A DNA stretch of 64,000 nucleotides from Bacteroidales bacterium (GCA_017427985.1 JAFRRS010000013.1:4565-68564); one strand, 5' to 3'. Counted from the stretch's first letter, positions 2,075 to 31,866 are shown. Numbers and translations: made by a program. Notes: generated by a model from the letters alone, not told the origin.

Positions 2075-2109
2075 AACTTCTAACTAAAAACTCCTAACTT
2101 CTAACTAAT
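2075..2109. repeat. heptanucleotide-periodic spacer AACTTCT AACTAAA AACTCCT AACTTCT AACTAAT
   Basis: Five consecutive 7-nt units were read directly. They fill the gap between the stop of the 610-aa gene (2105) and the serS leader. Confidence 0.8.
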
Positions 2110-4020: not shown

Positions 4021-4575
4021 TCAGAATCCGTAATCGGCTTGTTCCTCGGCAGCGATTAGGAAGTCGTCCTCGTTCGGAAGGACGTATGTTTTTGGTGTCT
4101 TGGAGCAGGTTTTGAGGAAATAATCATGCAGTTGTATCTCGACTTTCTGCATTGTAGATTCGATTTTTGAAGGAGTGAGCCGGCATTCCCAGATGACAAT
4201 CACCTGCCAGCCGTTGTCCTGCAAAACCTGATAATTTTGTCTGTCCCGCTCCTGGTTTCTGCGTATTTTATTAATCCAAAACTCGCGGTTAGTATTCGGA
4301 ATCTTACAGCAATCCGAGTTCACAACTTCCAACTTCTCATTCCTAACTTCTAACTCGACATCGTGTCCGTGCCAGAAGCATCCGTTGACGAAAATCGCCG
4401 TGCGGTAGCGTCTCATCACGATATCAGGTTTTCCTGGAACTCCTTTAACATTAAGGCGATAGCGGTATCCGTGTTGCCACAGCCATTTGCGAACAAGCAA
4501 TTCCGGCTTCGTGTCGCGAGAATGGATGTGCGACATGCATAGGTGGCGTTGGGTGGGGGTCATTTTGTCGGTCAT
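4021..4575 (-). CDS. vsr: very-short-patch repair endonuclease (Vsr) carrying an extra ~16-aa segment
   Basis: Vsr hallmarks are present: SRDTKPEL, GKPDIV, NGCFWHGH ... PNTNREFW..KI..N..RD ... VIVIWECRL. Its start shares 1 nt with the stop of the upstream nuclease gene. Confidence 0.85.
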   Translation of the reverse strand: MTDKMTPTQRHLCMSHIHSRDTKPELLVRKWLWQHGYRYRLNVKGVPGKPDIVMRRYRTAIFVNGCFWHGHDVELEVRNEKLEVVNSDCCKIPNTNREFWINKIRRNQERDRQNYQVLQDNGWQVIVIWECRLTPSKIESTMQKVEIQLHDYFLKTCSKTPKTYVLPNEDDFLIAAEEQADYGF

Positions 4576-6794
4576 TATACAATGTATTTCATCAACTCGT
4601 CTCCTGTTTCGAAGATAGGTGTTCCATCTATGTAATCAGGTAATAATTTGGCGTCCGTAATTATGTCATGAAGACTAATTCTTGTCGAAAGCTGTACCTC
4701 TTCATCAAAGACGTAACATAAATAATTGCCTTGAGGATTTGGATATAATGCTTTTTTCATTCTTTCTTCATCCAATGTAGCATGATGATGAACATGAAAA
4801 ACGCGATATCCTTTGTTTTCAGCATTATATTCATAAAGGATTACGAATTTAACATCCAAACTTGCCAGATAAGTGGGTGATAAAGCACCGTCACGAACAT
4901 CGCTTCCGCGTTTCTTCAAGCGGACATTGTAAAGGTTGGTTCCTTTGTCGTTTTTGCCCATAATCCAATCCAGTTGTTCCTTCGAATGGTAGCAGCCAAT
5001 GAGGAAATGCTGGGTTGGATAGCGTTGAATATGGTGAGTGGTGAGCAGTGACACAGGTTGTATTGCTCTTTCAGGTTGAACAACGGTTGGCAAAACAGTT
5101 CGAGGGTCTTGTCCTAACGAACATTGTTTGCAATAAAAGCCTGTATCAACCAGATTTAGAATATACTCGTTCTCATCATTGTATTTTTTGTCTTTGTCGA
5201 GTGCGAGTGCAAAATACTGTTGTGTATCTGGAATATCATAAGGAGTGTAAACCTTTCCCAACAATTGTTGGAAATTATCTTTTATGAATTCCTCCGCATT
5301 GATTTCTTCACGTGGTGTCATGGCATAGAAATCATACTGCTCTTGGAGAACTTTTTTGATGTTTTCTCGAAATATCTTTCTGATTTCTTGTGTGCGCTCA
5401 CCGGCTCCCAGTACGTAACATGCAAGCACGAAAAGGAAATTGATATTATACGTCTGAAGGATTAGTGTGTCACGGTCAAAGAGTCGATTCTCAAAATGGT
5501 ACGAAATCCTGTGGCTCTTACCATCAATCATCTTCTCCAGTTGTAAATTGGCATTGCTGTAGTTGTTCAGTTGCTCGGCTTGCAGATGTCCGCGAATAAA
5601 GAAATTGGGCGTGATGTTGTAGCCTTCGGTCGTGTTGTCCCGGTATTGCAGGTTTGTCCGCTCAAACGCTTCTGGATCCTGATTAAAGAAATCGATATTG
5701 TATTGGATTACGTTCTTGGCGTACGTGAATTGTTTGTAAATGGAGTCCGGACCAATATCATTGTCATCCTTATAGTATTTGCTGTCACCGATGAAATAGA
5801 TTTGCTTTTTGTCTTCAATCAATGAATTGTCACGATAGATATGGTCGATGATCTTGCCGTCTTTATGTTTCTTAAGTCTATGATCCAGATTGTTGTCGCC
5901 GATGAGCGAGTCGATCATGTCCTCGAACACAAGGTTGAACTCACGAACAAGCATCGCCTGTTCATCCTGATTGTCTTTGCTTTGGACGTATTGGGATTGC
6001 TCGAAAAACGTAAAGAGCAAGTTCCAAAGCTGCACCATCTCATCCGTGAAATACTTACGTCGGTTCTGCCTGAGGACACGTACACCTTTGCCACTTTCTA
6101 TCATGGATTGGATATTTTCGGGTTTGAGCAGCTCATACCCAAAAGCAGGACGGACATTGAACTTGAATTCTTGTGCCAAATAGTTCAATACCGAGTAAAA
6201 TAGCACTATCAGTTCTTCATCAAAATTGATGTCTTTTTGTTTGGTGTGCGGATTGAGATACACTGGAACTCCGTTTTGAATCAGTGCCTTGGTCTTTGAG
6301 ATGGTTTTCTGCCAGTGTATCTTGTTTTGTCCGGAGTGCTTGAGACGGGTAATATAAGTAAATAGGCTCTTGTGTTCCTTGTCGAATTTCAAGAGTGAAA
6401 GGACAATGTCTATCATCGTTTCATTACTCGGACCTTGGTGGGAAACCACGTTTTGCATGATCTCCGCTTCGTCACTTGCCTTGTCCTTGCGTTGAAAATA
6501 GAGTTTAATGGCTCGATATATCCACACGGAAAGACTGAAGACGTTGGCCTTGTGCTCCTGTTTGAGATTGTCAAAATCGATTATCTCTTCCAGTTCATAT
6601 TCGCCGAAGGCTTTCCCGTAAATGATAAACACTTTCGGCAGAATAAACACCGTATCAGGGATTTTGCGCGAAAGGAAATAACCGACATAGGGTATCTTGG
6701 CTTTCCCATCGCGCATCTCCGTGAAATAGTGCGGGTCGAGTATGATGCTCAACCTGTCTTTATCATAGCCGTATTGCTCTATCAGTATCTTCAT
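4575..6794 (-). CDS. McrC-like / LlaJI R2-type restriction endonuclease subunit
   Basis: 739 aa, with a 4-nt ATGA overlap to the upstream McrB-like gene. It has a PD-(D/E)xK-type segment IYFIGDSKYYKD (D-x-K-Y as in McrC). The large size and gene order match LlaJI-type R2 proteins, as far as I remember them. Confidence 0.65.
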   Translation of the reverse strand: MKILIEQYGYDKDRLSIILDPHYFTEMRDGKAKIPYVGYFLSRKIPDTVFILPKVFIIYGKAFGEYELEEIIDFDNLKQEHKANVFSLSVWIYRAIKLYFQRKDKASDEAEIMQNVVSHQGPSNETMIDIVLSLLKFDKEHKSLFTYITRLKHSGQNKIHWQKTISKTKALIQNGVPVYLNPHTKQKDINFDEELIVLFYSVLNYLAQEFKFNVRPAFGYELLKPENIQSMIESGKGVRVLRQNRRKYFTDEMVQLWNLLFTFFEQSQYVQSKDNQDEQAMLVREFNLVFEDMIDSLIGDNNLDHRLKKHKDGKIIDHIYRDNSLIEDKKQIYFIGDSKYYKDDNDIGPDSIYKQFTYAKNVIQYNIDFFNQDPEAFERTNLQYRDNTTEGYNITPNFFIRGHLQAEQLNNYSNANLQLEKMIDGKSHRISYHFENRLFDRDTLILQTYNINFLFVLACYVLGAGERTQEIRKIFRENIKKVLQEQYDFYAMTPREEINAEEFIKDNFQQLLGKVYTPYDIPDTQQYFALALDKDKKYNDENEYILNLVDTGFYCKQCSLGQDPRTVLPTVVQPERAIQPVSLLTTHHIQRYPTQHFLIGCYHSKEQLDWIMGKNDKGTNLYNVRLKKRGSDVRDGALSPTYLASLDVKFVILYEYNAENKGYRVFHVHHHATLDEERMKKALYPNPQGNYLCYVFDEEVQLSTRISLHDIITDAKLLPDYIDGTPIFETGDELMKYIV

Positions 6795-8470
6795 TTAGAG
6801 GAAACGCCCAAGTAATCCATGAATTGTTGTAAGGTCTGCGTTGCTGCTTCTTCATACAAGTCTTTGAATATGAATTTGCTTGTCTGCTCTTTGTCGTCAA
6901 TGGTTGTTTTCTTGTAGAAGAAGTATTTGTTGTTCTCCGTTTCGTCACGCAGCACTTCATACCAAAGATAGAACATCACCTTGCTCTTGAATTCCTTTTC
7001 ATCCACAGAGTGCTTGATAAAGAAGTTTCCCAATTGTTTGTCCTCGCTCTGGGTGAGGTCAAAAATCCTCTTGTTGGCTTCTTTTATAAAGTCAACCCAG
7101 GGATAAGCCTTGTCTCCGATGGTTATTTCAAATGTGCCTGACTTGATATCAGTAGCATAGTTAATAGGGACATACTCCCATTCCCAACGGCGTTTAAACG
7201 CGCTGTCCATGGGAAACAGGCTTTGATCGGAGGTATTCATGGTGGCGAGAATATTCAGGTTAGCGGGCAAGCAGAGTTTTCCGTCTTTAATGCCTTCTGA
7301 ATCCTCTCCCAATTTGTCTATGAGATAGTTTGCCAAGTCTTTGTCTGCTTTGATTTTGTATTCAGAAACTCCACCTTTTCTGTCCAACAGTTGGAATAAG
7401 TCGCCGAAGATTTGTGCGCAGTTCCCGCGGTTGATTTCTTCAATGACGAGATAGGTTTGCTCTGTTGAATGGGTGTAAGCATAAATGTAGGCGTCTGTAA
7501 AGGCTTGCGGAACGAATTCATACACAATCTCCTCATCTTTGCCGGTCAAGGTCTTTTCCTCTTTGGACGTCGGTTTCATGGTAGGCTTGTAGCATCCCAC
7601 AAAAGAAGCATAATCCGTATCCGGATGGAAAGTTGTACGGAAAACATTGGGCAAATCTCTTTCTTCACCACTGTCTAATAGTTCCCCTGTTTGTTTCTTT
7701 ACTTCGTGGCTTTTGCCTGTGCCTGGGGCACCGAAGAAGATTTGCTGGAGAGGAGAATCTATCTTTGTTGTTTTCATGATAGATGGATTGTTAATAGTGT
7801 TAAATAGAGAATGAATATCGACATTAATTAATTGGCATACATCTTCATCAAACTCAACATAAGATGTGTCCGCTTGGTTAACATCATTAGTATAAATCGC
7901 ATCACAATAATCTGAAGTAAATAATGTATTCAGCGCACTTTTTATACCGTCCATATTCTCTTCAGGAATCTGTTTAAATCGAAGAAGCCAAACAATAAAA
8001 GCCAATCTTAACTCAGAAGAACCCAAATAAAAAGAAAAGCAATCATTTAGGTAATCACCCCGATATATTAACACTTGGTCTTGAATGTCCATGACAGGCT
8101 TCCACCCTGAACGTTTGGGGTATAAAAAAGTATTGTATGGGTTTGTTTTTGAATCTTTTACAGATGATTGGGAATAGAAATTGCTGCCACAATCAAAGTC
8201 TCTCCCATTTTGAGAAATACTCAAGAAAAAGTCTTTTGTGCAGTAGTCTTCATTAATTTTCACTATCTCTCCGACATGTGATGCAAATTCATCTCTATTG
8301 GCGGATAGTTTCAAATCGCAATTCTGGCTGTGATTTTTATAAAATAAGTCCAGAGCCGATGCGTATTTTAAGGCACTGACTTTTTGTGTAAGTCCTTGCT
8401 GTTTTTCAGAATCTATGCCAGAAAGCAACTTATAAGCATGTAATACTGTTGATTTTGCCAAATATGCCAT
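6791..8470 (-). CDS. McrB-family AAA+ GTPase (LlaJI R1-type) with an unassigned ~235-aa N-terminal domain
   Basis: Walker A FFGAPGTGKSH is present, along with EEINRGNCAQIFGDLFQLLDR. The McrB signature MNTSDQSLFPMDSAFKRRWEWEYV is also there. Confidence 0.8.
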   Translation of the reverse strand: MAYLAKSTVLHAYKLLSGIDSEKQQGLTQKVSALKYASALDLFYKNHSQNCDLKLSANRDEFASHVGEIVKINEDYCTKDFFLSISQNGRDFDCGSNFYSQSSVKDSKTNPYNTFLYPKRSGWKPVMDIQDQVLIYRGDYLNDCFSFYLGSSELRLAFIVWLLRFKQIPEENMDGIKSALNTLFTSDYCDAIYTNDVNQADTSYVEFDEDVCQLINVDIHSLFNTINNPSIMKTTKIDSPLQQIFFGAPGTGKSHEVKKQTGELLDSGEERDLPNVFRTTFHPDTDYASFVGCYKPTMKPTSKEEKTLTGKDEEIVYEFVPQAFTDAYIYAYTHSTEQTYLVIEEINRGNCAQIFGDLFQLLDRKGGVSEYKIKADKDLANYLIDKLGEDSEGIKDGKLCLPANLNILATMNTSDQSLFPMDSAFKRRWEWEYVPINYATDIKSGTFEITIGDKAYPWVDFIKEANKRIFDLTQSEDKQLGNFFIKHSVDEKEFKSKVMFYLWYEVLRDETENNKYFFYKKTTIDDKEQTSKFIFKDLYEEAATQTLQQFMDYLGVSSK

Positions 8471-8472
8471 AA

Positions 8473-9687
8473 CTATTTCTTTTTAACTTGTATATGATTC
8501 AATAAAGCCATTGCAACGACCCATGCCATAACGGGAGGAACGGCATTCCCTATTACTTTATATTGTGATTGTAGAGGTATTGCATTAAATCTAAAATTAT
8601 CTGGGAAAGATTGAATTCTTGCACATTCTCGTACCGAGTAACGCCTGTTTTCTACAGGATGTGTAATGCCACAATTTTCTGGCTGTGCAGAAGCTGTGAT
8701 GGTACCATTTATTTCACCAAAAGCAAAACGTCTGAAAAATTTCGGTGCATGATATTTCTTGGGATCATCCGCTATTTTCTTAAAACGAGGTGATAGTTTT
8801 TCGTATGGAATATCCTTCCACGAACGTCCTTCAAAAACAACAGAAGGTAATTCATTTTTGGAATACCCTTCATGAAACAATTCCATAGCCTTTTGTCCAT
8901 GTTTGCAGCCGCCAATTAATTCAACAGTATTTTGAGTAGTAACACTATATTCCCAGACGACATCGTCATTTTGTTCATGAACCCCCTGTAATATCCGACC
9001 CAAAAGAAGTTCTTCGTCTTTCCCTGTTAATGTTGACGGAACATTGTTCTTTTGAACCACTTTTAATAATAAATTGAAATCGAATGGCTTCAAATTCAAT
9101 TGCTTATCAATGCCAATTATGAGAACTCTGTATCTTTGTTGTGGAACGCCATAATCACTTGAGCAGACGAGTTTTATGCTTACATCGTAGCCCAACGCTT
9201 CCATTCTGTTTTGGATTTCCTGTGGGACTGTCCTTTCCCCGTCTGGCATTTTCGAAGAGAGAATACCTCTGACATTTTCAAACAAAAATGCCTTAGGGCG
9301 TTTATTTTCATCCGCCTTGGCTCGTATAATTCGTTCACATTCTTCAAACAAGGTTCCTCTCCCATTGGCATCATTAACGCCTTTTCTGCTTCCTGCATTA
9401 GAAAATGGTTGGCAAGGGAATCCTGCAAGCAAAATATCAAAATCTGGAATTTGTTTTGCATCCACATTTCGAATGTCTTCCAACAGACACTTTGCGCCAT
9501 CGTTCACTAATAAAGGATTTGCATTATAACACTTACACGCATCAATATCAAAGTCGTTTGCAAACACAATTTTTGTATTCAATCGTTTATAATCTTTCCC
9601 TAAAAAGGAAAAACCTCCTGCAAAGCCTAAATCAAGACCCCCGCAACCGGAAAAAAGGGATGCAATTTTATATTTTTTCTTGGACAT
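8473..9687 (-). CDS. DNA (cytosine-5)-methyltransferase (MTase 2)
   Basis: Motifs read: I LFSGCGGLDLGF, IV GFPCQPFS, VI FENVRGI, VIII QQRYRVLIIG, IX SVRECARIQSFPD, X IGNAVPP. Confidence 0.9.
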   Translation of the reverse strand: MSKKKYKIASLFSGCGGLDLGFAGGFSFLGKDYKRLNTKIVFANDFDIDACKCYNANPLLVNDGAKCLLEDIRNVDAKQIPDFDILLAGFPCQPFSNAGSRKGVNDANGRGTLFEECERIIRAKADENKRPKAFLFENVRGILSSKMPDGERTVPQEIQNRMEALGYDVSIKLVCSSDYGVPQQRYRVLIIGIDKQLNLKPFDFNLLLKVVQKNNVPSTLTGKDEELLLGRILQGVHEQNDDVVWEYSVTTQNTVELIGGCKHGQKAMELFHEGYSKNELPSVVFEGRSWKDIPYEKLSPRFKKIADDPKKYHAPKFFRRFAFGEINGTITASAQPENCGITHPVENRRYSVRECARIQSFPDNFRFNAIPLQSQYKVIGNAVPPVMAWVVAMALLNHIQVKKK

Positions 9688-9733: not shown

Positions 9734-10642
9734 CTATTTCAGTAATTTGGAGAAAACGTCTGAATACTTAAGAATATTCTTTCTGATCTCCTTGATATCT
9801 TCATCATTAAAAGTTTTATCTCCTTTTTTCGTTATAAGAACTTCCTTCCCTTCCACTACTTTACTTACACAATGTGCCAATTGATTCCTGATTTCAACAA
9901 TTTCTGCCATATAGTCTTCAAAGAAGTTCGCGCGAGTAGGAGAATATAATTCTTTTGGGATTATATAGTTAACAGCTTTCGCCATTTGGGCTGATTCCAT
10001 ATTAGGTATTACTTCTTGTATCGGTATGCTTTTCCATTTGTGATAGCAAACCTTCTCCTTTTTACCACATCCATCCAAAGCATTCTTTATTCTTTCTTCT
10101 TGTTTTCTTGTTATATGATCGTGAAAAGTTTTTATTAGAATGTCTGTCTCATTCTGGACATAATATTTGTTTATCAAATCTAACATTATACCATCTAATT
10201 CGCTCACTTCAGCCATCACGAGCCCACGTAAATTATTCAAATCTTGAACTTTTCGAATGGTTGTCTGAATAACTACTTTTATCTTGTTTAAAAACAAGTC
10301 TTTATCTCGCCCCGAAAAATAGACACCTTCCAAATCCAAAGCTTGAGCTTTTTGTTTGATCTTTTGAAGCCCATCGGCAGAATAGAACACAACATCCGTA
10401 TAAATTTCTTTGTCTCGGATATTTTTTATCAGTAAATCTCCCGAAGGTTCGGTTTCAAGGTTTAAATCCATTAAAATGAGATCGTAGTTATTATATTGGA
10501 TTGTATCATCTTGTTTGGAATACAAATCCCAATTTAATACCAAACCATAGTCTCCTTCAACAATCTCTTTAAGATCGTCTTCTATGGATTCAGCCCAATC
10601 CGAATCATTTTCAACCCAAAGTATCTGATATTTTAATCTCAT
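9734..10642 (-). CDS. receiver (REC)-like protein with a C-terminal helical HEPN-like domain (R252-N-Q-L-A-H257)
   Basis: The N-terminus reads ILWVENDSD ... DLILMD59LNL ... VVFYS88A, which fits a CheY-like fold. The C-terminal ~160 aa is all-helical and carries RNQLAH (nt 9872-9889). A 2-nt gap separates it from the upstream kinase-like gene. Confidence 0.55.
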   Translation of the reverse strand: MRLKYQILWVENDSDWAESIEDDLKEIVEGDYGLVLNWDLYSKQDDTIQYNNYDLILMDLNLETEPSGDLLIKNIRDKEIYTDVVFYSADGLQKIKQKAQALDLEGVYFSGRDKDLFLNKIKVVIQTTIRKVQDLNNLRGLVMAEVSELDGIMLDLINKYYVQNETDILIKTFHDHITRKQEERIKNALDGCGKKEKVCYHKWKSIPIQEVIPNMESAQMAKAVNYIIPKELYSPTRANFFEDYMAEIVEIRNQLAHCVSKVVEGKEVLITKKGDKTFNDEDIKEIRKNILKYSDVFSKLLK

Positions 10643-10644
10643 AT

Positions 10645-13218
10645 TCAGAATATTATATCTAATTTTAACCCTTTTCCTTTGTTATTGTTTTGAGAACGAT
10701 AGGCCGTATCAATAGAAATAGAGCCTTTCAATTCTTTTTCAACAAACATTTTAGCATTAAACAACCCCAACCCAGATCCTGACGTTGTAGTTACTCCTTT
10801 CTCGAAAATATCCTGTTGATTTTCTAAACTATTTGCAATGCCATGTCCATCATCAAAAATGCTCATTTCAATTTGACTGCCCTTTTGAGAAAACACAACA
10901 TTGAAATGACGAGCTCCGGCTTTGATGGAATTAGAAAGAAGATTGTCAATTAATAGGTTTAACTCTAAAGGACGAAACTTCATAATGCGTTTGCAATTGT
11001 TTGTTTTACAAATGAGATTAATTTCTTCGTAATAATCCGGAAGCACGGATGTCAAATACTGATTTACAAACTCCACAATATCTGCGTCCAAAGATTCTCC
11101 TTCCACGTTAAAATTGGCTTTTGTGGCAAATCTTGAAATGGACAGCACCTTTCTATTTGCCTTGGAAATACGCTCCAACGCTTTAGTGAGATTACCTTTA
11201 TCTATTGTACCCTTATACAACTGTTTGATGATACTGTCCAAAGAATTCTGGATCGTATGCGCATTCAATCTGATATCGTGATGATACTTGATAATTCTAT
11301 CTTTATCGAGATTATCTACCGATTGCAGGAAAAGATTTTGTTTTGTTTTTTGATCAAGTTTTTTCTCTGCTTTTTTTCTCTTTTCTTCTTCCTCTTTTCT
11401 TTTCTGTTCAGCTTCTTTACGAAGCAATTCTTCTTCCCGTCTTTTAAGCTCTGCTTCTTTTGCTTGCAATTCTGCTTTTCGTTTTGCCTCGGCTTCTTCC
11501 TCTTTTTTCCTCTCTGCCTCTATTCTTTTAATTGTTTCTTCTTGGGCTTTGCGTTCAGATTCCTCTCTCTTTTTCTCCGCTTCGATGGCTCTTTGTTCAG
11601 CTTCCTCTTTTTCTTTTCTGAGTTTTCTTATATGTTGTTTTGCTTCGTCGATGCTCAGAAGCATATTTTCATCATTTGTGCTTTCAGCGATTTTCTCAAG
11701 ATCGTTGAGAAATTGAGGTTTTATGTTGTCAATCTCTTCTGGATCAGACAGAATATTTGCAAGATCTTTGTTGTAAGAGACGATTTCAACATTTTTATCA
11801 CGAGTAAGGGTTTTTATGAGTTGAATAAAATCTATCTTACTTCCAATGCTTGAATTAATCAAATAATTGGGATTGTCGTTCTCCTTATCATTTTCGAGTA
11901 GTTCTTTTCTTCTTTCCAGAGCTTCATTGGCATCTTTAAAATATTCTTTTTTCAAAAAAGCTTCGCCCCAAAGCACACCAGAAACATATCTCTCCAATCT
12001 TCTATGAGCAACTTCGAAAAGATTAAAAAGTTGTTGTGAAGTTTGGGTTTCAATCAATCCTCCATCGCGACTTGACACCTCCTTCAGTTCCTCAACATTA
12101 TCTGTCAAGACATCAACCCTGCCAAACAAATCACGTGTTCCAAGAAAACGATTATGTCCTTGTTGTGCACGGTAATCGAGCCCCCAGCTGTCATCTCCGG
12201 TATTGCCAAATGGCATTATCCTAAATCCATTTCTGAATAAAAAAACCGAACCATAATTAACAGGTTCAATGCCCATTAATCTGGTAAAATTATTTTTTGC
12301 AGAACGGTTTAGGAAATAGAGATTGATACTAACATCCTTCAGTTTGTCAAAAGAATTGTTTTTCTCATGAATAGTGTACATCTCGACCCCGCGATCGGTA
12401 AGTGTTGTGGTAATGTGATCGGGAGACAATTTCACATCTATCTGGGTCGTTTTTAGATCAAGAATGCTTGTTATACTATTTTTTAAAATCCCATTGACCA
12501 ACTCTCTTTCGTGTTTGCCTTTCTCAATACAACTCTTATCCTCAGCGAGCTCTCTATTGCACTTTATTTCGATGCCGAAATCACTCGTTTCCGCAAAAGG
12601 ATTGATTAATTTTTCAAGAGAATGCTTGAGATCCAATAAACGTTTCCTGTTCCAAGGCATTTTTTCATCATTCAGCCTTTTAATCTCAAGAATAGTTCCG
12701 TGTGTCTCTTTTTCAGGAAAAATCGCATTAGAAGTAGTTAAGGTATCGTGTCCTACATTAACATTAGCAAATTCTAAATTCTGGTCAATTTCGAAATCGG
12801 TCCAATCAACTTGAATAATTTCAAGCGTGTTTGAAGAAACACTTTTTGTCTTTAGTAATAATTCTTTGCCCAATCGATCACATGAAAAACGCCCAATACC
12901 TTTGGCTCCCGCATAATGACGCCTGATTTTATCTCTATATGATGTTTGTTTGTCATCTGAATCGTTATCTTCAGTACCATCCTTCTTAGCTGAGTACCCT
13001 AAAAAAAGCCATTTCTTTTTTATATCTTTTAAAGACATTCCCTTGCCATTATCTGCAATAATAATTTTGTCGTCAAGGAATTCTATTTCCACTTTTTTTG
13101 CGTAAGCATCATAGGCATTTTTCACCAACTCAAATATGGCCACATTATCATTGATAATTAAATCTTTACCAACAAGATCTTTTAAAGCCGAACTAATTTT
13201 AAACTGCAGCTGTTCCAT
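10645..13218 (-). CDS. dual-GHKL protein: N-terminal MORC/MutL/Hsp90-class ATPase, E/K/R-rich helix, C-terminal histidine-kinase core
   Basis: N-terminal motifs: ELVKNAYDA, ADNGKGM, GAKGIGRFS. Residues 531-622 are almost pure E/K/R/A/Q. The H-box-like segment is YHHDIRLNAHTI (aa 645-656). The kinase core has N-box DNLLSNSIKA, G1 DDGHGI and G2 GSGLGL. No TM segment or signal peptide is present. Confidence 0.65.
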   Translation of the reverse strand: MEQLQFKISSALKDLVGKDLIINDNVAIFELVKNAYDAYAKKVEIEFLDDKIIIADNGKGMSLKDIKKKWLFLGYSAKKDGTEDNDSDDKQTSYRDKIRRHYAGAKGIGRFSCDRLGKELLLKTKSVSSNTLEIIQVDWTDFEIDQNLEFANVNVGHDTLTTSNAIFPEKETHGTILEIKRLNDEKMPWNRKRLLDLKHSLEKLINPFAETSDFGIEIKCNRELAEDKSCIEKGKHERELVNGILKNSITSILDLKTTQIDVKLSPDHITTTLTDRGVEMYTIHEKNNSFDKLKDVSINLYFLNRSAKNNFTRLMGIEPVNYGSVFLFRNGFRIMPFGNTGDDSWGLDYRAQQGHNRFLGTRDLFGRVDVLTDNVEELKEVSSRDGGLIETQTSQQLFNLFEVAHRRLERYVSGVLWGEAFLKKEYFKDANEALERRKELLENDKENDNPNYLINSSIGSKIDFIQLIKTLTRDKNVEIVSYNKDLANILSDPEEIDNIKPQFLNDLEKIAESTNDENMLLSIDEAKQHIRKLRKEKEEAEQRAIEAEKKREESERKAQEETIKRIEAERKKEEEAEAKRKAELQAKEAELKRREEELLRKEAEQKRKEEEEKRKKAEKKLDQKTKQNLFLQSVDNLDKDRIIKYHHDIRLNAHTIQNSLDSIIKQLYKGTIDKGNLTKALERISKANRKVLSISRFATKANFNVEGESLDADIVEFVNQYLTSVLPDYYEEINLICKTNNCKRIMKFRPLELNLLIDNLLSNSIKAGARHFNVVFSQKGSQIEMSIFDDGHGIANSLENQQDIFEKGVTTTSGSGLGLFNAKMFVEKELKGSISIDTAYRSQNNNKGKGLKLDIIF

Positions 13219-14494
13219 GTTGTAGCATATTTAATAAAACTTCCCCCGCCAATTCCGCAAATAAAGGCGGAATGGCATTCCCAATTTGGGTGTAACGGGG
13301 TACTTCCAACTTGCGCATCTTGCCGCCAGTGGTATATTTCTTTTTAATCTCATACCAATCGGGAAACGATTGGATACGGGCACATTCACGAACGGTCATG
13401 ATGCGAGGTTCTGAATAGTGCAAATAGTCATCTGGACTGCCGGTAATGGTCGGAGAGACCACATTGGAATCCAAAATGGTGATGCCACGCTGCTTGATGC
13501 CCCATTGCTCACGTGTCTCTCCGTCAATTCGTTTGCCACGTTGCGGATATTCAGATAGCAAGCGTTTGTAGCAATTGATTTTATCTGGTGTTTGTTTGGC
13601 AAAACTGTGGCTATCTGCTATTCCATGCGTTTCTGGATAGTCGCCTCGCATCAACTTTTGGTATGCCGTCGGTTTCTTCTTGCCATATTTTCCGGAATAA
13701 AAGCCTTTGCGATCTGGTGTGGGTTCTTCTCCGTTGGATCGAAGCAAGTCAGAAATTGCGTCCTGCAAAGTGTTGGTGGACTTTAAGCCTTTTTGCGCCA
13801 GAAACGCATCTCGATTGGCTTTTAACAAACCTTCGAAACAATCAGGCGTTCCTAACTCTTTTCGAATTCCAACAAGAATAAAACGCTTGCGACGTTGAGG
13901 GACACCATACTCTGAAAAATCAATCACATGTGGTTTCACATTGTAACCCAAATCTCCCAACCCACGAATCACTTTGAGGGAATAGGGTTCATTCTCGGAA
14001 GAAGCCGATTTCCCTTTGTCGAAAGCATAAGTGAAGCCTTTCACATTCTCAAAAAGGATCATTTTAGGTCTAACTAAGTCGATGAATTTTATATATGAAA
14101 ACACCAACTGGTTTCTTACATCTTCTTCAACACGTTTGCCAGCCATAGAAAAACCTTGGCAAGGCGGTCCGCCAGCCACTAAGTCCACGTTCCCACGCAA
14201 AGATTTCAGTTGCTCCGAATACTTTTCCAATACCTCGTTGATGTCGTGTTCGGTTTTAGGCAGCCATTCCGGCCAATCAAAGTGGTTCTTGTTATCAATA
14301 AGGTTGTATTTTAATGTTTCAAAAGCAAATGCGTTTTTCTCAATAGCGAACAAGCCATGCCATCCCGATTGATAAAGCCCCAAAGACAAACCTCCACAAC
14401 CCGCAAATAGATCTATTACCGTACGAAACGCCAACTGTTTTCCCTTTTCAACAGAAGACAACTTATTATTACTCTTATAGTTAGCGTTTTTCAT
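13199..14494 (-). CDS. DNA (cytosine-5)-methyltransferase (MTase 1)
   Basis: Motifs read: I DLFAGCGGLSLG, IV GGPPCQGFS, VI FENVKGF, VIII QRRKRFILVG, IX TVRECARIQSFPD, X IGNAIPP. The stop overlaps the start of the kinase-like gene by 20 nt. Confidence 0.9.
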   Translation of the reverse strand: MKNANYKSNNKLSSVEKGKQLAFRTVIDLFAGCGGLSLGLYQSGWHGLFAIEKNAFAFETLKYNLIDNKNHFDWPEWLPKTEHDINEVLEKYSEQLKSLRGNVDLVAGGPPCQGFSMAGKRVEEDVRNQLVFSYIKFIDLVRPKMILFENVKGFTYAFDKGKSASSENEPYSLKVIRGLGDLGYNVKPHVIDFSEYGVPQRRKRFILVGIRKELGTPDCFEGLLKANRDAFLAQKGLKSTNTLQDAISDLLRSNGEEPTPDRKGFYSGKYGKKKPTAYQKLMRGDYPETHGIADSHSFAKQTPDKINCYKRLLSEYPQRGKRIDGETREQWGIKQRGITILDSNVVSPTITGSPDDYLHYSEPRIMTVRECARIQSFPDWYEIKKKYTTGGKMRKLEVPRYTQIGNAIPPLFAELAGEVLLNMLQHGTAAV

Positions 14495-14594: not shown

Positions 14595-14623
14595 AAAAAA
14601 AGCCGACGAGTTTCCTCATCGGC
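14595..14623 (-). terminator. rho-independent terminator of rplU-rpmA
   Basis: The minus-strand RNA reads GCCGAUGAG-GAAA-CUCGUCGGC followed by U7. Confidence 0.75.
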
Positions 14624-14672
14624 CTATTTTTCTGTTCGTTTCCAATTGGGCGAATATGATTCGCCCCTACGC

Positions 14673-15366: not shown

Positions 15367-18300
15367 TTATCTCACCACAATTTTTTGTGTTTGTTCGTTT
15401 AATTTCAAAATGTATACGCCAGTTTGTAAAGACGTTTCAGGAAACGTCTCCACCCCATTTACGCGCCTGCTTGCAATCATGCGCCCCATCACATCGAAGA
15501 TTTGCAGCTCGCCTTCGCCTGTGATAATTATTTCAGCACCATTTTGATAGGCAAAATGCCCCTGCAGAGACGCAAAATTTTGCGTCTCTGCAAACACGAT
15601 TATAAACCTTTCTTGTCTATCGGTTGGCGAACCGATGAAGGTGTAGCGGTTGTTTTCGGTTAAATCAACAACAACATCTTCTAATCTATCGATTAATTTT
15701 ATGTCCGGTAGAGACGTTTCCTGAAACGTCTCACCCAAACGCGAAAAATAAGACGTTTCAGGAAACGTCTCTACGGAAATGGTATATTGTCCCATTTCTT
15801 TCGCCTTGAAATTCAGCGGAATCTCGCCCTGGCGGCTGCTAGAAACCATAGCGTAATCCTTGCCGTCTTGCGGGACGTATAATTTTGTGCTGCCGTCGAA
15901 GACCTGCAATTTCTCCATTGTTTTCTTGCTGTCGAAACGCACTATTGCGCGGTCGATGACGCTGCCACGGTTTCCTTTGCTGAGGTTGATGACTACCTGT
16001 CCTGATTCAGATTTTTGACCGCTGCCTTTGCCTGGCGCTTCGGTGGTGAATGTCAGCGTCTCACCGTCTTCGTCCGCGTGAACGAAGATGCCTTCCATAG
16101 CTTCAACATGGTAATCAGCGCGTTCAGCGAGTACAATTTCGCTGCCGTCGTCGTTCATAACATAGAAATCGCGGTCGATGTAAGCCGTTTCAGCAAACGG
16201 GTTGCCCACGAGGTTCCAGCCTTCCATTTCAGCACCCGGTGTCTTGGTGAGGGTGACCGTACCATCACCGCTGTAATGCTCGCCGTTGAAGGTGAGCGTC
16301 ACATCTTCGCTGTTGGCATAGAGATAGCCTCTTCCCTGCTCAAGGTCGAAATGATAGTGGTCGGATTCATCTGCCTTCCAGTTTTCCCATTCCGCATCGG
16401 CGGCTTGGTTGAAGCGGTATAGGTCGTAGGTGTTTTTGGTGAGGCCATTCACATCTGTTGGGAAGACGTCATTAGCCAAAGGCGAAGCGATGAGGTTCCA
16501 GCCGTCATTGCCATCGGGAGTGTAATGTGCTATGTCGAGAGTGACTGTTTGTTGGGATTCAACTTTCTTGTAAAGCGAAAACGATCCGCCAGTATTTGTT
16601 GTAGAGCAATCGAAACCTATGATCTGTCCGTAAGTATTGTGATATCTAAGATAAGGATAGCTTCCACCGCACCTGAAATCGTAAACGGATGTCCCCTCCA
16701 CCGTCCAGAGACCAAAGCCATCGTTATGGTCATTTGCATTTTCAACTAAATCAACCTTGTAGCAAAAATAATATGCTGCGTATTTTTGGGCTTCAGCGCT
16801 GTAGATAGTCCAACGGTCGTCATTTGGGGCGATGTGCCAAACAATGTCTGTTTGGTCTGTAGTAATCACGTCATCAATCGCAGTAACATTCGTATATTGG
16901 AATACACGGTTCATTAACATGCTGCTCATGGCAGCGCCATCTTTTACAATCAGATAGTCGCCTTCAACAAGGTCTCCGCTGAATAGTTCATAATGGTCAC
17001 CAGTTGGAGTGCCAGGCTCCACAGTGGCACTGACAGTCACGTTGGCATCGGGCATCACGAAGGAAAAAACGCCGTTGTCAGGCTCGATGTTGTAGTCGTT
17101 GCCGCCGTAAGAGAGGGTGGCTGAGGTGAGCTTATAGCCTTCTTGTGCGCCCAGCGTGACGGTATATCCGACACTGCTATAGATGTAGGTGGTATTGCCG
17201 TCGTTATATTTAATGGCATGGTTGCCAAAGCCGATGGCGGTAATGCCGCTCACGTTGTAGATGGTTTCCTCGCCTTTGAGGATGACGCCCTCGCCGAGAG
17301 TGATGGTGCGGGCGCGGCGAGCGCCGTCAATGTCGTTGCCCCTTACACCGCCAGGCACTATGGCACTGGTGGTGTTGTAGTAGTTGTTGGTGTAAAAGCA
17401 CTGATACATGTTACCGCCAATTATTGCGCCACTACTCTCATCGGAGATGACGGCAGTGCCGGTGTAAAGGCAGTTACAGACGATGGTATAGCAATCGTTG
17501 TTATAGAGTTCCGTGTTGTTGCCTACGATGCCGCCATACAAACGGCTAGCCGTTGACTCCACTCTGTTTTCGATGACGGTAGCGCCACTGACACATCCGA
17601 CCACTGAGCCCAGGTTATAGCCCGCGATGCCGGCGTGGCGAGGTGAAACGTCACCACCGGCATAGATGTTGACGCTATTCTCCACGCGGCAGTTATAAAT
17701 GATCCCTGTGTTGAGACCCACGATGCCGCCAACACTAGCTCTCCCAGCGAAGGTACAGTCGGTGAGGGCAACGTTCCTAACGGTAGCCGTAGTGTTATCG
17801 GTATCATAACCAATACGGCCGAAAAGACCGACATTTTCGTCGTTCCAGTTAACCCAGATGCCGCTTATGGTGTGGCCGCCGCCGTCATAAACGCCATTGA
17901 AAGTGTTTGCTAATTGGCGTCCGATTGGGACGTAGTTGTTTTCTGTGCCGTCATAAACCAGGTCGACTGTCTGGAGGAAGAACTTGTCGCTGTAATCGTT
18001 GCCTTCATTGACCTTGGTTGCCAGCCTATCCAAATCAAGGGTTGTTCTTATCAGGAAGGGGCTTTCAGCGGTACCATCACCGCTCCATGGGGCAATTTCG
18101 ATGATGGCTGTAACGGTGACATCCTTGTCGGGCATGTCGAAGGTGTAAACGCCGGCAGTTTCGGTTACAGCGACATCGTTGTTGTTTGAATCTTTCACGC
18201 TGAAACCGGCAAATGCGTAGTCATCGGGTGCAGTGCCGGTGTAATCGAGGGTTAGCGTCTGTGTGGCGCCGCTGAAGATAGGGTTGTTGCTACGACGCAT

Positions 18301-19752
18301 GGCGTAGTTGCCTGTGCCGATTGCGATGATAGCACTGACATTGTAAACGGTCGGGTCGCCCACAATGACGACATCCTCGCCAAGATTGACGGTACGGGCA
18401 CGGCGCGCGCCGTCCACGTCGCTGCTGTTGACGCCGCCGAGGTTGATGTTGTTATAATAGTTGTTGGTGAGATTAGAGCCTGCATTATAACCCGTGATAG
18501 AGCCGATTTTGTCGTCGCCGGTGACAATGGAACCGGTATAGAGGCAATTCTCTATAGTGCCTTCGTCGTTTTTGCCCACTATGCCACCGAAGTACTCGCA
18601 GCCACTCTTGCCATTATTGCTGACAGCAGCGCCGCTGAAGCAGCCGATGACTTTGGCATCGCTGGTATAATTATAACCAACTATTCCACCGTGGTACAAA
18701 GCATTACTGTGTCCGGCATGGATGACAACGCTGTTATTCACGCGGCAGTTCTGCACTGTGGTGAAACCACTTGCATTTCCATTGGAGAAACCAACGATAC
18801 CGCCAACATAATTATATCCCGTGAAGGTGCTGCTGGCAAGGATAACGTTTCGCACAGTGCCGGCAGAAATGCATCCGAAGAGACCGACACTACTGTCGGC
18901 ATCGGTGTTTCCAGTACGGTTGACAGTGATATTGCGGATGTAGCGTCCCTGACCATCGTAGGTGCCAGAGAAACAGGCAAAGTCATTTTCGTTATTGTAA
19001 TAGCCGATAGGGACGTACGTGTCATCACAATTGATGTCCTGTGTCTGCAAGAAAGAGAGGTTTTCACAGTCGTTATTACCGATATTGACGTATGAGGCGA
19101 GCACGGCGAGGTCGCGCTTCGACGTGATGTTATAAGTGTTGGCACTCGGACTGGTGAGCAGGGTAATAGGCGCCAAATCGGTGTAGGTAATTGCAATCCT
19201 GCCAAACGAGCTCCTCGAATTGAAACTCTCCTGCAACTGGTAGGCGTAGTCGAATGACGGATTCATGGGATGGTGGTTAATGTCGCTCATGCCGGTATTG
19301 CCTTCGTTGTTCAACATCTCGATTTTAGTGACAAAATAACGTCCACTGCCGCCGGTAACGGTGTAGGTGATGTATTTGTCTATACTCGGGGCATTGATGT
19401 TGATGCCACCTTGATTGCTGATTATTGCATTGCTGCCTGCCTCCCACTGTAAACGCAGGGTGAAGCCGTCGCTGAAGCTGACAGTGTAGTCGCCTGCACC
19501 ATTGCTCCCTCCCCCGTTATTGAGCGAACTCTCGTCGATATTCATCCAGTATAAGTTCTCATAGCCGTCAAATGGCATGTCGCTGCCATCGGCGCGGGAG
19601 AAGCCAACTTCATAGCAGTGGTAGTTTTGGTTGTAGTTCGCACTGCTGATTCTGTAAATCACGGTTTTGGTAGTAGCTTGTGCTATCTGCCCAAAAGCGA
19701 CTGCCATCACAAGCAGCAACGCTGCAAAAACTCTTGTGTATAAAGTCTTCAT
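15367..19752 (-). CDS. T9SS-sorted GLUG-repeat surface protein (1461 aa)
   Basis: Signal peptide MKTLYTRVFAALLLVMAVAFGQ. There are two GLUG-type modules (VGGIVG...NC...GGIVG). The T9SS-type C-terminus reads ...LQIFDVMGRMI...GVYILKLNEQTQKIVVR. Confidence 0.8.
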   Translation of the reverse strand: MKTLYTRVFAALLLVMAVAFGQIAQATTKTVIYRISSANYNQNYHCYEVGFSRADGSDMPFDGYENLYWMNIDESSLNNGGGSNGAGDYTVSFSDGFTLRLQWEAGSNAIISNQGGININAPSIDKYITYTVTGGSGRYFVTKIEMLNNEGNTGMSDINHHPMNPSFDYAYQLQESFNSRSSFGRIAITYTDLAPITLLTSPSANTYNITSKRDLAVLASYVNIGNNDCENLSFLQTQDINCDDTYVPIGYYNNENDFACFSGTYDGQGRYIRNITVNRTGNTDADSSVGLFGCISAGTVRNVILASSTFTGYNYVGGIVGFSNGNASGFTTVQNCRVNNSVVIHAGHSNALYHGGIVGYNYTSDAKVIGCFSGAAVSNNGKSGCEYFGGIVGKNDEGTIENCLYTGSIVTGDDKIGSITGYNAGSNLTNNYYNNINLGGVNSSDVDGARRARTVNLGEDVVIVGDPTVYNVSAIIAIGTGNYAMRRSNNPIFSGATQTLTLDYTGTAPDDYAFAGFSVKDSNNNDVAVTETAGVYTFDMPDKDVTVTAIIEIAPWSGDGTAESPFLIRTTLDLDRLATKVNEGNDYSDKFFLQTVDLVYDGTENNYVPIGRQLANTFNGVYDGGGHTISGIWVNWNDENVGLFGRIGYDTDNTTATVRNVALTDCTFAGRASVGGIVGLNTGIIYNCRVENSVNIYAGGDVSPRHAGIAGYNLGSVVGCVSGATVIENRVESTASRLYGGIVGNNTELYNNDCYTIVCNCLYTGTAVISDESSGAIIGGNMYQCFYTNNYYNTTSAIVPGGVRGNDIDGARRARTITLGEGVILKGEETIYNVSGITAIGFGNHAIKYNDGNTTYIYSSVGYTVTLGAQEGYKLTSATLSYGGNDYNIEPDNGVFSFVMPDANVTVSATVEPGTPTGDHYELFSGDLVEGDYLIVKDGAAMSSMLMNRVFQYTNVTAIDDVITTDQTDIVWHIAPNDDRWTIYSAEAQKYAAYYFCYKVDLVENANDHNDGFGLWTVEGTSVYDFRCGGSYPYLRYHNTYGQIIGFDCSTTNTGGSFSLYKKVESQQTVTLDIAHYTPDGNDGWNLIASPLANDVFPTDVNGLTKNTYDLYRFNQAADAEWENWKADESDHYHFDLEQGRGYLYANSEDVTLTFNGEHYSGDGTVTLTKTPGAEMEGWNLVGNPFAETAYIDRDFYVMNDDGSEIVLAERADYHVEAMEGIFVHADEDGETLTFTTEAPGKGSGQKSESGQVVINLSKGNRGSVIDRAIVRFDSKKTMEKLQVFDGSTKLYVPQDGKDYAMVSSSRQGEIPLNFKAKEMGQYTISVETFPETSYFSRLGETFQETSLPDIKLIDRLEDVVVDLTENNRYTFIGSPTDRQERFIIVFAETQNFASLQGHFAYQNGAEIIITGEGELQIFDVMGRMIASRRVNGVETFPETSLQTGVYILKLNEQTQKIVVR
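15430..15449. repeat. GAGACG-family hairpin H1 (AGACGTTTC-ag-GAAACGTCT)
   Basis: 9-bp stem with a 2-nt loop, inside the CDS. It encodes ..VETFPETS.. in the sorting domain. Confidence 0.9.
15563..15592. repeat. GAGACG-family hairpin H2, a 30-bp perfect palindrome TGCAGAGACGCAAAA|TTTTGCGTCTCTGCA
   Basis: Read directly. It encodes AETQNFASLQ and is identical to H6. Confidence 0.95.
15711..15732. repeat. GAGACG-family hairpin H3 (GAGACGTTTC-ct-GAAACGTCTC)
   Basis: 10-bp stem. The left flank is GTA, as in the GTAGAGACG consensus. Confidence 0.9.
15751..15770. repeat. GAGACG-family hairpin H4 (AGACGTTTC-ag-GAAACGTCT)
   Basis: 9-bp stem with right flank CTAC. It lies 18 nt from H3. Together the two encode VETFPETSYFSRLGETFQETS. 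Confidence 0.9.
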
Positions 19753-30837: not shown

Positions 30838-31866
30838 TCAGCCTTGGACAATCCTTTTTAGTTCCTCCTCGGTTGGCATATATAATTTGTATTGAGAAGA
30901 GAAAAGCTGTTTGCTTTCTGAAAGCATTGAATACTCGACAACTGTCTTGTCATTTTGCGAACATAATATAATACCAATAGTTGGATTGTCGGTTTCTGTT
31001 CGTTTCTGTTTCTCATAAAGTCGCACATACATATCCATCTGGCCGACATCCTGAGGCGTCAAAACACCAGTTTTCAAATCAATCAAAACAAAGCATTTCA
31101 AAATATAATTGTATAAAACCAAATCAACGTAGTAATGCTTTCCTGCTTCGGTCGTTATTCTCTGCTGTCGAGCTACAAAAGCAAATCCTTTGCCAAGTTC
31201 AAGCAGGAAATCCTGAAGCTTGCTTATCAAAGCCTTCTCCAAATCGGCTTCCAGATAATCGGAATTCTCTTTAATATCAAGAAATTCAAGAACATAAGGG
31301 TCTTTCAAAAGTTTTGAAGGAGATACATTGACATTATTCTTTTCTGCTTCGTGTTTGACAACATCCTTGTTATGGCTTGCAAGCAGTCGCTGATAATAAA
31401 ATGAGTTTATTTGTCTTTCAAGTTGTCGCGAACTCCAGCCGTTATCTGCAGCCTCTTTTAGATAAAACGTTCTAACTTTTTCATCTTCAACACGAAGCAA
31501 AAGGCGATAATGTGTCCAACTCAATTCGCCACGCAGTGCGTGACCAATTGGAAACATCATATAAAACTGCCTGATATACTTCAAGTTAGTTATTCCAAAT
31601 CCTTTACCAAACTCTTTTGTTAAAGCAACAGATAATTTCTCAATAATTTGTTTGCCATATTCAGCACGACCACTACCATTCTGTTCCTGCATCACAATTC
31701 GTTTCCCTATCAGCCAATAAGCCTGAACCATAGCAGTATTTACACTGCTTGCCACGTATTTTCGTGCAGCGTGCAAAATGTTACTGATGTCGTTGATGTA
31801 ATCCGTTGTTTCTTTGATGTTTAATAACGAAACATCTTTCTTTTCGTAAAACTCATTTTTTGCCAT
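30838..31866 (-). CDS. PDDEXK nuclease-fold protein, YhcG/DUF1016 family (copy 1)
   Basis: The C-terminal core reads YYVDLVLYNYILKCFVLIDLKTGVLTPQDVGQMDMYV...PTIGIILC. Confidence 0.75.
   Translation of the reverse strand: MAKNEFYEKKDVSLLNIKETTDYINDISNILHAARKYVASSVNTAMVQAYWLIGKRIVMQEQNGSGRAEYGKQIIEKLSVALTKEFGKGFGITNLKYIRQFYMMFPIGHALRGELSWTHYRLLLRVEDEKVRTFYLKEAADNGWSSRQLERQINSFYYQRLLASHNKDVVKHEAEKNNVNVSPSKLLKDPYVLEFLDIKENSDYLEADLEKALISKLQDFLLELGKGFAFVARQQRITTEAGKHYYVDLVLYNYILKCFVLIDLKTGVLTPQDVGQMDMYVRLYEKQKRTETDNPTIGIILCSQNDKTVVEYSMLSESKQLFSSQYKLYMPTEEELKRIVQG

Follow-up and report, generated by a model that had tools for sequence, protein, structure and literature searches.

A histidine kinase with two different GHKL ATPase domains between a C5-cytosine methyltransferase and a receiver protein: a candidate methylation-linked immune module in a Bacteroidales bacterium

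Histidine kinase-like (HK-like) proteins that combine HATPase_c_3, HEF_HK and HATPase_c domains were described by Bellieny-Rabelo, Pretorius & Moleleki in 2021 (PMC8011034), who found all three in 174 of 222 proteins, in taxa that include Bacteroides, Prevotella, Flavobacterium, Chryseobacterium and Vibrio. Linkage to a response regulator-like (RR-like) gene was 91.6%, with a C5-methylase upstream and vsr downstream; the study was purely computational, saw in the RR-like protein no domain beyond the first and suggested a role in regulating restriction-modification (R-M). The window analysed here, a 64,000-nucleotide (nt) stretch of DNA from a Bacteroidales bacterium (GCA_017427985.1 JAFRRS010000013.1:4565-68564), holds on its minus strand an intact open reading frame (ORF) of this kind, 857 amino acids (aa) long, at 10645..13218. 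It is the middle gene of a triad whose members all lie on the minus strand. The meaning of the kinase is carried by this context: a C5-cytosine DNA methyltransferase (MTase), M1, lies upstream, and a protein with a receiver (REC) domain and a probable HEPN domain, the partner, lies downstream. Both ATP sites of the kinase, its histidine and the aspartate of the partner are intact and conserved, the kinase and REC parts have the corresponding folds, and the triad occurs across phyla. From these sequences we propose, at what we judge to be an even chance, that the triad is a three-gene R-M-like immune module that would signal by His-Asp phosphotransfer to an RNase.

By architecture, gene context and taxa the locus is clearly a member of the module of Bellieny-Rabelo et al. 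It shares with the published HK-like/RR-like modules the HATPase_c_3 domain, a histidine followed by an acidic residue in the dimerisation and histidine phosphotransfer (DHp) domain, the HATPase_c domain and a soluble protein, together with an adjoining receiver-like gene, a C5-methylase upstream, vsr nearby and overlapping taxa. An earlier reading of the window from its sequence alone (the sequence-only reading) had called the coupling of a MORC-like module to a histidine-kinase output unusual; in the sense of undescribed, this does not hold for an architecture that was published in 2021 (PMC8011034) and has relatives in at least 577 genomes of a species scan with one genome per species. The differences are a long ER/K expansion, heptad quantisation and cassette shuffling, none of which is in the published account, and the second domain of the partner, which is read here as HEPN. 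What is new here is the probable HEPN output, the triad across phyla, the shuffled, co-evolving kinase/REC cassettes and the heptad-quantised linker. In the Pfam copy used, HEF_HK (PF19191) and Response_reg_2 (PF19192) matched none of the window proteins, 61 relatives or five proteobacterial pairs, and PF19191 did not match the isolated DHp segment at E<=10. Since the two profiles missed every family member, this test is uninformative rather than negative; the HEF_HK profile may be too narrow or absent from that copy.

Ambrosia of P. aeruginosa (bioRxiv 10.1101/2025.09.30.679545) comprises an XRE protein, an N6-adenine MTase, a HATPase, a REC protein and an HNH nuclease. It protects against phage, all of its genes are required and the D60A replacement in REC is inactive. 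Compared by description, Ambrosia and the triad are alike in clustering a DNA methylase, an HK/Hsp90-like HATPase and a REC protein, the aspartate of which is needed in Ambrosia. The REC of Ambrosia is reported with a helix-turn-helix of winged type (wHTH), whereas the module in the window has a C5-MTase and a REC-HEPN-like protein. No XRE, N6-MTase or HNH gene was found in the island of the window that holds the triad.

Other described systems resemble the triad in their N-terminal ATPase. ParaMORCs were defined in R-M operons (Iyer et al. 2008, PMC2292703), and VcSduA, a paraMORC3-Shedu protein, is a validated defence protein that requires its GHKL ATPase (PMC12137116). Type II enzymes of the BbrUII/HgiDII family and paraMORC3-Shedu have in common with the proposed module an N-terminal MutL/MORC-class ATPase whose motifs are intact and which controls the output and links to cytosine methylase and vsr. 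In those proteins, however, the nuclease is fused, whereas here a histidine-kinase core is fused and the effector is separate; the likeness to BbrUII/HgiDII is confined to the GHKL domain. Fusions of paraMORC with HEPN have also been noted in R-M contexts and likened to the R-M-linked anticodon nucleases PrrC/RloC (Anantharaman et al. 2013, PMC3710099). The parallel between paraMORC-Ymh HEPN, PrrC/RloC and the proposed module would be an R-M-embedded NTPase sensor with a HEPN RNase under its control, which serves as a second line of defence. There, sensor and HEPN are fused, whereas a His-Asp phosphotransfer link is proposed here, and the HEPN family of the partner is RiboL-PSP/Abi2-like at best.

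Towards the signalling side, the 857-aa protein shares with class I kinases (HK853, EnvZ, WalK, ZraS) the fold of the DHp and catalytic and ATP-binding (CA) domains, the boxes H, N, G1, F and G2 and a helix that runs on into DHp α1. It differs from them in that the input is a second GHKL ATPase rather than PAS, HAMP, GAF or transmembrane segments, the linker is far longer and almost fully charged, and the partner is apparently not a transcription factor. Detocs (defensive two-component system) is likewise an immune phosphorelay with a soluble sensor kinase and an enzymatic effector fused to REC; it is reported to combine a sensor of the TPR type with a buffer REC protein and, as effector, a nucleosidase, and to have no methylase. 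The PADLOC models for Detocs (DtcA/B/C) matched neither the kinase nor the partner. MADS was considered as a relative and set aside as an unrelated eight-gene system. A predicted HATPase/REC system is named by DefensePredictor in a figure legend only, without detail. PHROGs matches were to families of unknown function only.

The 857-aa protein is identical in sequence to MBQ6083721.1, entered in public data as 'MAG: ATP-binding protein [Bacteroidales bacterium]' (MAG, metagenome-assembled genome); the entry for the product of the next gene is MBQ6083720.1, 'hypothetical protein'. Pfam identifies HATPase_c_3 (aa 25-146, E 6e-21) and HATPase_c (aa 751-841, E 1.4e-18). These are, as the sequence-only reading had it, two different GHKL modules, one of the MutL/MORC/Hsp90 class and one of the kinase type. 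A word-indexed search returned thousands of relatives, the best 120 of which are nearly all 840-863 aa long and carry both Pfam domains, bar one truncated entry. HMMER with aa 1-530 against 1.84 billion cluster representatives gave 4486 matches at E<=1e-3, including 399 at E<=1e-30. Conservation was read from 131 aligned representatives, which share 32-54% identity with the query. The protein is not a chance fusion, because both domains are present in each of 61 diverse relatives scanned singly (61/61) and the catalytic residues are invariant in the 131 representatives.

Assignment of the C-terminal part to a histidine-kinase core, made in the sequence-only reading, is supported by both sequence and fold. 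Residues ~630-857 match ZraS and PrrB in a sequence search of the PDB, and the same part of the AlphaFold2 model, which has a mean pLDDT (predicted local distance difference test) of 66.5 for the whole protein, matches the DHp-CA of HK853, EnvZ, WalK, ZraS and SrrB at a Foldseek E of ~1e-10. The DHp helical hairpin (aa 630-702, 11113..11331) contains His647 (codon 11278-11280), followed by Asp648, inside a model helix that spans 595-669; the second DHp helix is 674-702. The sequence-only reading had asked whether homologues keep a phosphorylatable histidine in a DHp-like helix and whether both ATP lids are intact in them. His647 is invariant in 28 close and 131 distant relatives. The CA domain (aa 703-857 and stop codon, 10645..11112) has an N box at N763, a G1 box at D789-x-G791-x-G793, an F box at F805 and a G2 box at G814-x-G816-x-G818; H647, N763 and G791 are invariant, and D789, G793, F805, G814, G816 and G818 are at least 90% conserved. 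Both lids are intact in homologues with the exception of a minority kinase cassette, type D (locus L009, 6001-8589, P0063; also P0025 and P0107). In type D the G1 box is lost (DDGxG replaced by VSN-KPF) and HATPase_c is only faint in Pfam. Type D cassettes retain His647 and a partner with REC and the Rx4H motif described below, and may be phosphotransfer-only or pseudokinase variants.

Pfam reports no PAS, GAF, TPR or HAMP domain in the 857-aa protein, and no hydrophobic segment was found; the top Kyte-Doolittle 19-residue window reaches only 0.88 and the protein is therefore soluble. The sequence-only reading had also recognised no transmembrane segment, PAS, GAF or TPR and had placed the sensor in the N-terminal part. 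Without any of these, the N-terminal ~530 residues, of which ~330 are conserved and fall in no family, remain the only candidate sensor.

The first part of this putative sensor is the GHKL ATPase (aa 1-190, 12649..13218). It carries motif I (E30/N34/D37, in ELVKNAYDA, aa 30-38), motif II (D56-N-G-K-G-M61, in ADNGKGM, aa 55-61) and a lid motif (G104-A-K-G-I-G-R-F-S112, that is GAKGIGRFS, aa 104-112), within which E30, N34, D37, D56, G58, G60, G104, K106, G107 and G109 are invariant in the 131 representatives. The NCBIfam model for the N-terminus of BbrUII/HgiDII restriction enzymes matches aa 16-190 (E 1e-18) with 67 bits, the family cut-off being 550 bits. A sensor profile, built from the first 530 residues of 28 diverse relatives and run against PDB sequences, matched HtpG (1.7e-5), MutL (3.7e-5), PMS1 (4e-5), MORC3 (3e-4) and TRAP1 over the first ~130 residues only, and left histidine kinases unmatched. 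The N-terminal module therefore belongs to the MutL/Hsp90/MORC class. Together with HATPase_c_3 and the motifs quoted from the sequence, these profile searches confirm the GHKL fold and the class that the sequence-only reading had given it.

The second part (aa 191-516, 11671..12648) is a conserved middle region with dense invariant columns. Within it, aa 316-369 (nt 12112-12273) are more strongly conserved than any other block of the protein (N321, G323, F326, R329-N-G-F-R-I-x-P336, G341-D-D-S-W-G346, Q352-Q-G354 and R362-D-L-x-G-R-V368) and are also the part that AlphaFold2 models worst, with a pLDDT around 30. This block may be an interface, or a ligand- or DNA-binding loop, that needs a partner to fold. 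Pfam gave no match to the isolated middle region, the sensor profile found no solved relative of it among PDB sequences, and a fold search with the kinase model was dominated by DHp-CA matches and returned nothing on it.

The sensor might read a phage protein or nucleotide pools rather than DNA, the MTase being accessory or independent. HtpG/Hsp90, the top PDB match of the sensor profile, is a protein-clamping GHKL, sensing of nucleoside triphosphates was suggested by the 2021 authors (PMC8011034) and no DNA-binding motif was identified. We nevertheless consider this improbable, as the MTase is almost invariably a neighbour and its variation follows the sensor half and not the kinase, and the closest named N-terminal relatives are restriction enzymes and MutL/MORC, which act on DNA. 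DNA or its methylation state is the presumed signal, and defence the presumed role.

Sensor and kinase are joined by a long helix (aa 517-629, 11332..11670) that has an ER/K core at aa 536-620 (nt 11359-11613). The 85-residue charged string quoted in the sequence-only reading is exact; its description as an E/K/R-only helix was overstated, since the composition (E30 K19 R11 A12 Q4 L4 I3 S1 T1) is 71% E/K/R. AlphaFold2 draws one charged helix of about 150 residues over aa 517-669, with a low-confidence break at 588-594 (helices 517-587 and 595-669). As this single model helix bears His647, the linker is continuous with DHp helix 1.

Two forms of the linker were weighed. Were aa 536-620 a true ER/K single alpha-helix (SAH), it would act as a stiff monomeric spacer that sets a distance. 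The 71% E/K/R content and the one long model helix fit this, as do 0.75 opposite-charge i/i+3-4 pairs per residue, a share of large hydrophobic residues of 8-10%, and a best-register a/d large-hydrophobic occupancy of 0.22, compared with 0.80 for GCN4; the ER/K control sequence used in these statistics is indicative only. Other results speak against this form. The distance from the conserved A511 to H647 equals 73+7n (n = 0-11, 17) in 104 of the 131 representatives (79%; range 73-192), a periodicity with a chi-square p of 1e-95 that no other modulus from 3 to 11 approaches. In addition, through 14 heptads (28 homologues) one position of the heptad holds apolar residues, mostly Ala; in the window protein these are A526, L533, A540, A547, A568, A582, A589, A603 and A617. 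The mean apolar fraction of this stripe is 0.72 against 0.29 overall, a value reached in 0 of 20000 permutations and for period 7 alone in a phase-mean test, which is suited to a single-position stripe. Shuffling gave no significance to the Fourier power of the linker at periods 3.5 and 7 (p ~0.08-0.09). The helix also enters the DHp, an obligate dimer, and a long ER/K-rich stretch is present in only 45 of the 131 members and absent from 39. Replication slippage was rejected as the source of the 7-residue (21-nt) steps, as the repeats that TRF detects in the DNA of the linker are no more than weak and short.

The heptad-quantised length and the conserved Ala stripe therefore favour a coiled coil that keeps register. 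On this sequence evidence the linker is fairly likely to be a weak, highly charged parallel coiled coil in a DHp-anchored dimer, which would work as a signalling helix rather than an inert SAH rod, and a true SAH is rather unlikely. The sequence-only reading had offered an ER/K single-alpha-helix or a coiled-coil-like rigid spacer. The SAH-like composition stands, while the neutral rod is at odds with the heptad register and the Ala stripe. The window protein has n = 9 and the mode is n = 0, making the modal linker nine heptads shorter; the very long ER/K linker is a clade-specific expansion. Engineered LOV-kinases such as YF1 reportedly show a dependence on linker length in steps of seven.

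The three genes of the triad are closely packed. M1 (13199..14494; Pfam DNA_methylase E 1.3e-56), the first gene, has a stop that overlaps the kinase start by 20 nt, and the ATG of the partner ORF (302 aa, 9734-10642) lies 2 nt past the kinase stop. The link to R-M anticipated by the sequence-only reading is real, with a cytosine methylase and a Vsr gene in the neighbourhood; the two adjoining genes had escaped that reading. In six unrelated metagenomic neighbourhoods the MTase, the kinase and the partner are the only shared genes, and the MTases directly upstream of the kinase in six unrelated contexts are 65-74% identical to M1. Gene context was counted at the best 80 loci of the species scan, which range from Bacteroidota to Pseudomonas, Vibrio, Paenibacillus, Patescibacteria and methanogenic archaea: in 70 the gene directly upstream of the kinase is an M1-type MTase and in 55 the gene directly downstream is a homologue of the partner, with REC and Rx4H, most of the remaining loci having one of two alternative two-gene cassettes.

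The REC domain of the partner (aa 1-132, 10247..10642) is a (βα)5 domain in the AlphaFold2 model (pLDDT 82.9 for the partner), with top PDB matches to REC at TM (template modelling) scores of 0.6-0.72. Taken in isolation it matches Pfam Response_reg (PF00072) at E 8.5e-6, below the gathering score, and D59 (codon 10466-10468, motif LILMD) and S88 are invariant. The C-terminal 170 residues (aa 133-302 and stop codon, 9734..10246) are all-alpha in the model and contain R252-N-Q-L-A-H257 (nt 9872-9889), an Rx4H motif. Its R, N, A and H do not vary among 17 divergent homologues, the partners of kinase types B and D among them, and the Rx4H residues are kept even between partner types that are 26-42% identical. 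The isolated domain gives sub-threshold Pfam matches to HEPN_RiboL-PSP (7e-4) and Abi_2 (0.018). Among the 17 homologues there are nine sub-threshold matches to six families of the HEPN clan (RiboL-PSP, HepT at 7.5e-4, MAE_28990, Swt1, Abi_2 and Apea), unrelated families appearing as single matches, and the Pseudomonas orthologue of the partner matches HEPN_RiboL-PSP at 1e-4. We regard membership of the HEPN family as likely, with good though incomplete confidence, and the domain probably has RNase activity. Against this assignment, no HEPN match reaches the gathering score, the assignment consisting of sub-threshold profiles and a short motif; the profile of the C-terminal domain returned only noise from PDB sequences (ferritin, YcdA, E>0.1); and a fold search with the whole partner model gave REC matches only and no HEPN.

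The nature of the partner bears on the published view of these pairs (PMC8011034), namely that they are regulatory two-component systems, in which the kinase would respond to a cytoplasmic cue and the phosphorylated partner would switch transcription of neighbouring R-M genes. The Ambrosia authors' model is likewise transcriptional, reporter expression in Ambrosia rose upon infection (bioRxiv 10.1101/2025.09.30.679545), and in the window a second MTase and restriction genes of the LlaJI type lie directly downstream on the same strand. Yet no DNA-binding domain was detected by Pfam in the partner or its orthologues, the C-terminus of which has instead the invariant Rx4H and the HEPN-clan matches. 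Nor is any restriction gene conserved beside the triad, which stands alone in Campylobacter and several Bacteroidales loci, and the alternative outputs described below are enzyme-like (a caspase-like protein) and not regulator-like. A regulatory role of this kind accordingly seems to us quite unlikely for the triad.

Comparison of the loci indicates that the module is assembled from exchangeable parts. Among close homologues, conservation is 70-85% over the first ~620 residues, and at least four discrete types of the DHp-CA part can be told apart. Locus L019 shares 69% identity with the window protein in the sensor and 25% in the kinase part, and loci L047 and L052 share 42-46% in the sensor and 46-47% in the kinase; the histories of sensor and kinase, as judged from these identities, are decoupled. 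Across 52 loci, REC similarity tracks the kinase cassette (Spearman rho 0.44, or 0.40 as a partial correlation with the sensor held constant; rho reached by 0 of 500 permutations), the HEPN domain tracks the sensor (rho 0.32, with 0.05 for the kinase) and so does the MTase (partial 0.30 with the sensor, -0.17 with the kinase), although the similarity-matrix permutation test leaves some phylogenetic non-independence. This is the pattern expected if kinase and REC were a cognate phosphotransfer pair swapped as a unit on a conserved chassis of sensor, MTase and effector.

The two alternative cassettes extend this picture. Downstream of type C kinases come a REC-like protein of 231 aa (LILIDEQ...FATDYNL...VVIYSA) and one of ~239 aa that has an HG...C signature and matches Peptidase_C25, of caspase fold, weakly (0.014-0.017). 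These outputs are found at L005 (10541-11948), L011 (8550-9951), L022, L023, L027, L034, L035 and L053. The signature and the match suggest a protease effector in place of the RNase. A third output occurs in Flavobacteriia/Sphingobacteriia, where a ~240-aa and then a ~220-aa gene lie downstream of the kinase (L031, L036, L041-L046, L049, L050, L056 and L058); Pfam matches neither gene, and neither resembles the other partner types. Exchangeable output cassettes of this sort would be a modularity typical of immune systems.

Relatives of the kinase were found in, among others, Bacteroidota, Treponema, Fibrobacter, Mycoplasmataceae, Vibrio, Pseudomonas, Marinomonas, Methylobacterium, Paenibacillus, Patescibacteria, Planctomycetota, Verrucomicrobia, Chlorobiota and the archaeon Methanimicrococcus, and gut Bacteroidales and Campylobacter are also represented in the family. 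The full triad is present in MAGs of Candidatus Methanimicrococcus from termite gut (L037, L040), with a kinase 41-42% identical to the window protein, and its presence in methanogenic archaea therefore indicates horizontal transfer between domains. The distribution of the triad, to judge from these sequences, is sporadic and appears driven by horizontal transfer. Neighbours at other loci include the defence-island genes AbiH, Eco57I-like, LlaJI and TIR.

Such a distribution would also be expected of a selfish element, in which kinase and RNase confer addiction, or post-segregational killing upon loss of the linked MTase methylation, and so stabilise the island. R-M systems are known to behave in this way, as discussed in PMC8011034, and the MTase of the triad is tightly coupled to, and co-evolves with, the sensor. 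Sequence data do not separate such a role from defence, and most modules of this type do both, while the exchangeable outputs and the defence-island neighbours fit an immune role at least as well. We assign a purely selfish function a low probability.

Our proposal for an immune module runs as follows. M1 would mark the host's own DNA with C5 methylation. The 857-aa protein would be a soluble homodimeric sensor kinase, whose MutL/MORC-type ATPase and middle region would form an ATP-driven clamp or sensor, most likely on DNA. The state of the sensor would pass down the register-preserving charged coiled coil, continuous with DHp helix 1, and would switch autophosphorylation of His647 by the C-terminal CA domain. 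ATP-driven GHKL dimerisation, as in MutL, Hsp90 and MORC, may zip the marginal coiled coil and so set the state of the DHp. The phosphoryl group would then move from His647 to Asp59 of the adjacent REC protein, and phosphorylation would activate the HEPN-type RNase of the partner, which would arrest or kill the infected cell or degrade transcripts of the invader. A more specific version for the whole family is that of methylation-linked immunity: the ATPase senses DNA without the C5 mark, the coiled coil and His-Asp phosphorelay fire an RNase or a caspase-like protease, and kinase/receiver cassettes are swapped around the linker. This version we hold tentatively, at somewhat less than an even chance.

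Further observations weigh against the proposal. Kinase and partner matched no known defence system among the PADLOC v2 models. After the GHKL domain the model of the 857-aa protein has a beta-rich stretch (aa 258-302) and a helix, but confidence is low at aa 316-369, which bears on the question of an S5/transducer domain. The authors of Ambrosia favour transcriptional control, and pre-methylation by its MTase did not protect phage (bioRxiv 10.1101/2025.09.30.679545); the analogy with R-M may therefore be wrong in detail.

If the proposal is true, bacterial immunity would use a classical His-Asp phosphorelay post-translationally and not for gene regulation. The self/non-self input would be DNA methylation read by a MORC-type ATPase, and the whole would be a restriction system whose 'R' is a signalling pathway. 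In eukaryotes, MORC ATPases are poorly understood epigenetic readers. The linker series from 73 to 192 residues offers natural lengths for the study of signalling down long helices.

Directly downstream of the triad, on the same strand, lies a LlaJI-type R-M system (4021-9687) whose genes all overlap or abut. It consists of a second C5-MTase (8473-9687), a McrB-like AAA_5 protein (6791-8470), a RE_LlaJI-domain protein (4575-6794) and Vsr (4021-4575). These genes were considered as part of the triad system and rejected, as hardly any other locus has them and the second MTase shares only 29% identity with M1. The triad and the LlaJI-type genes fill a low-GC island (34-42% compared with ~50%), which sits behind the terminator-like hairpin of rplU-rpmA at 14600-14625.

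Elsewhere on the minus strand of the window are a 610-aa ORF (2105-3937) whose N-terminus resembles a signal peptide and which Pfam does not match at E<=0.001, and a gene (15367-19752) for a repetitive surface protein of 1461 aa that weakly matches a C-terminal sorting domain of type IX secretion (Por_Secre_tail) and fits a Bacteroidota host. Two paralogous YhcG/DUF1016 PD-(D/E)xK nuclease genes (30838-31866 and 36092-37204, both on the minus strand) lie in low-GC islets that flank purL (32396-36091, plus strand).

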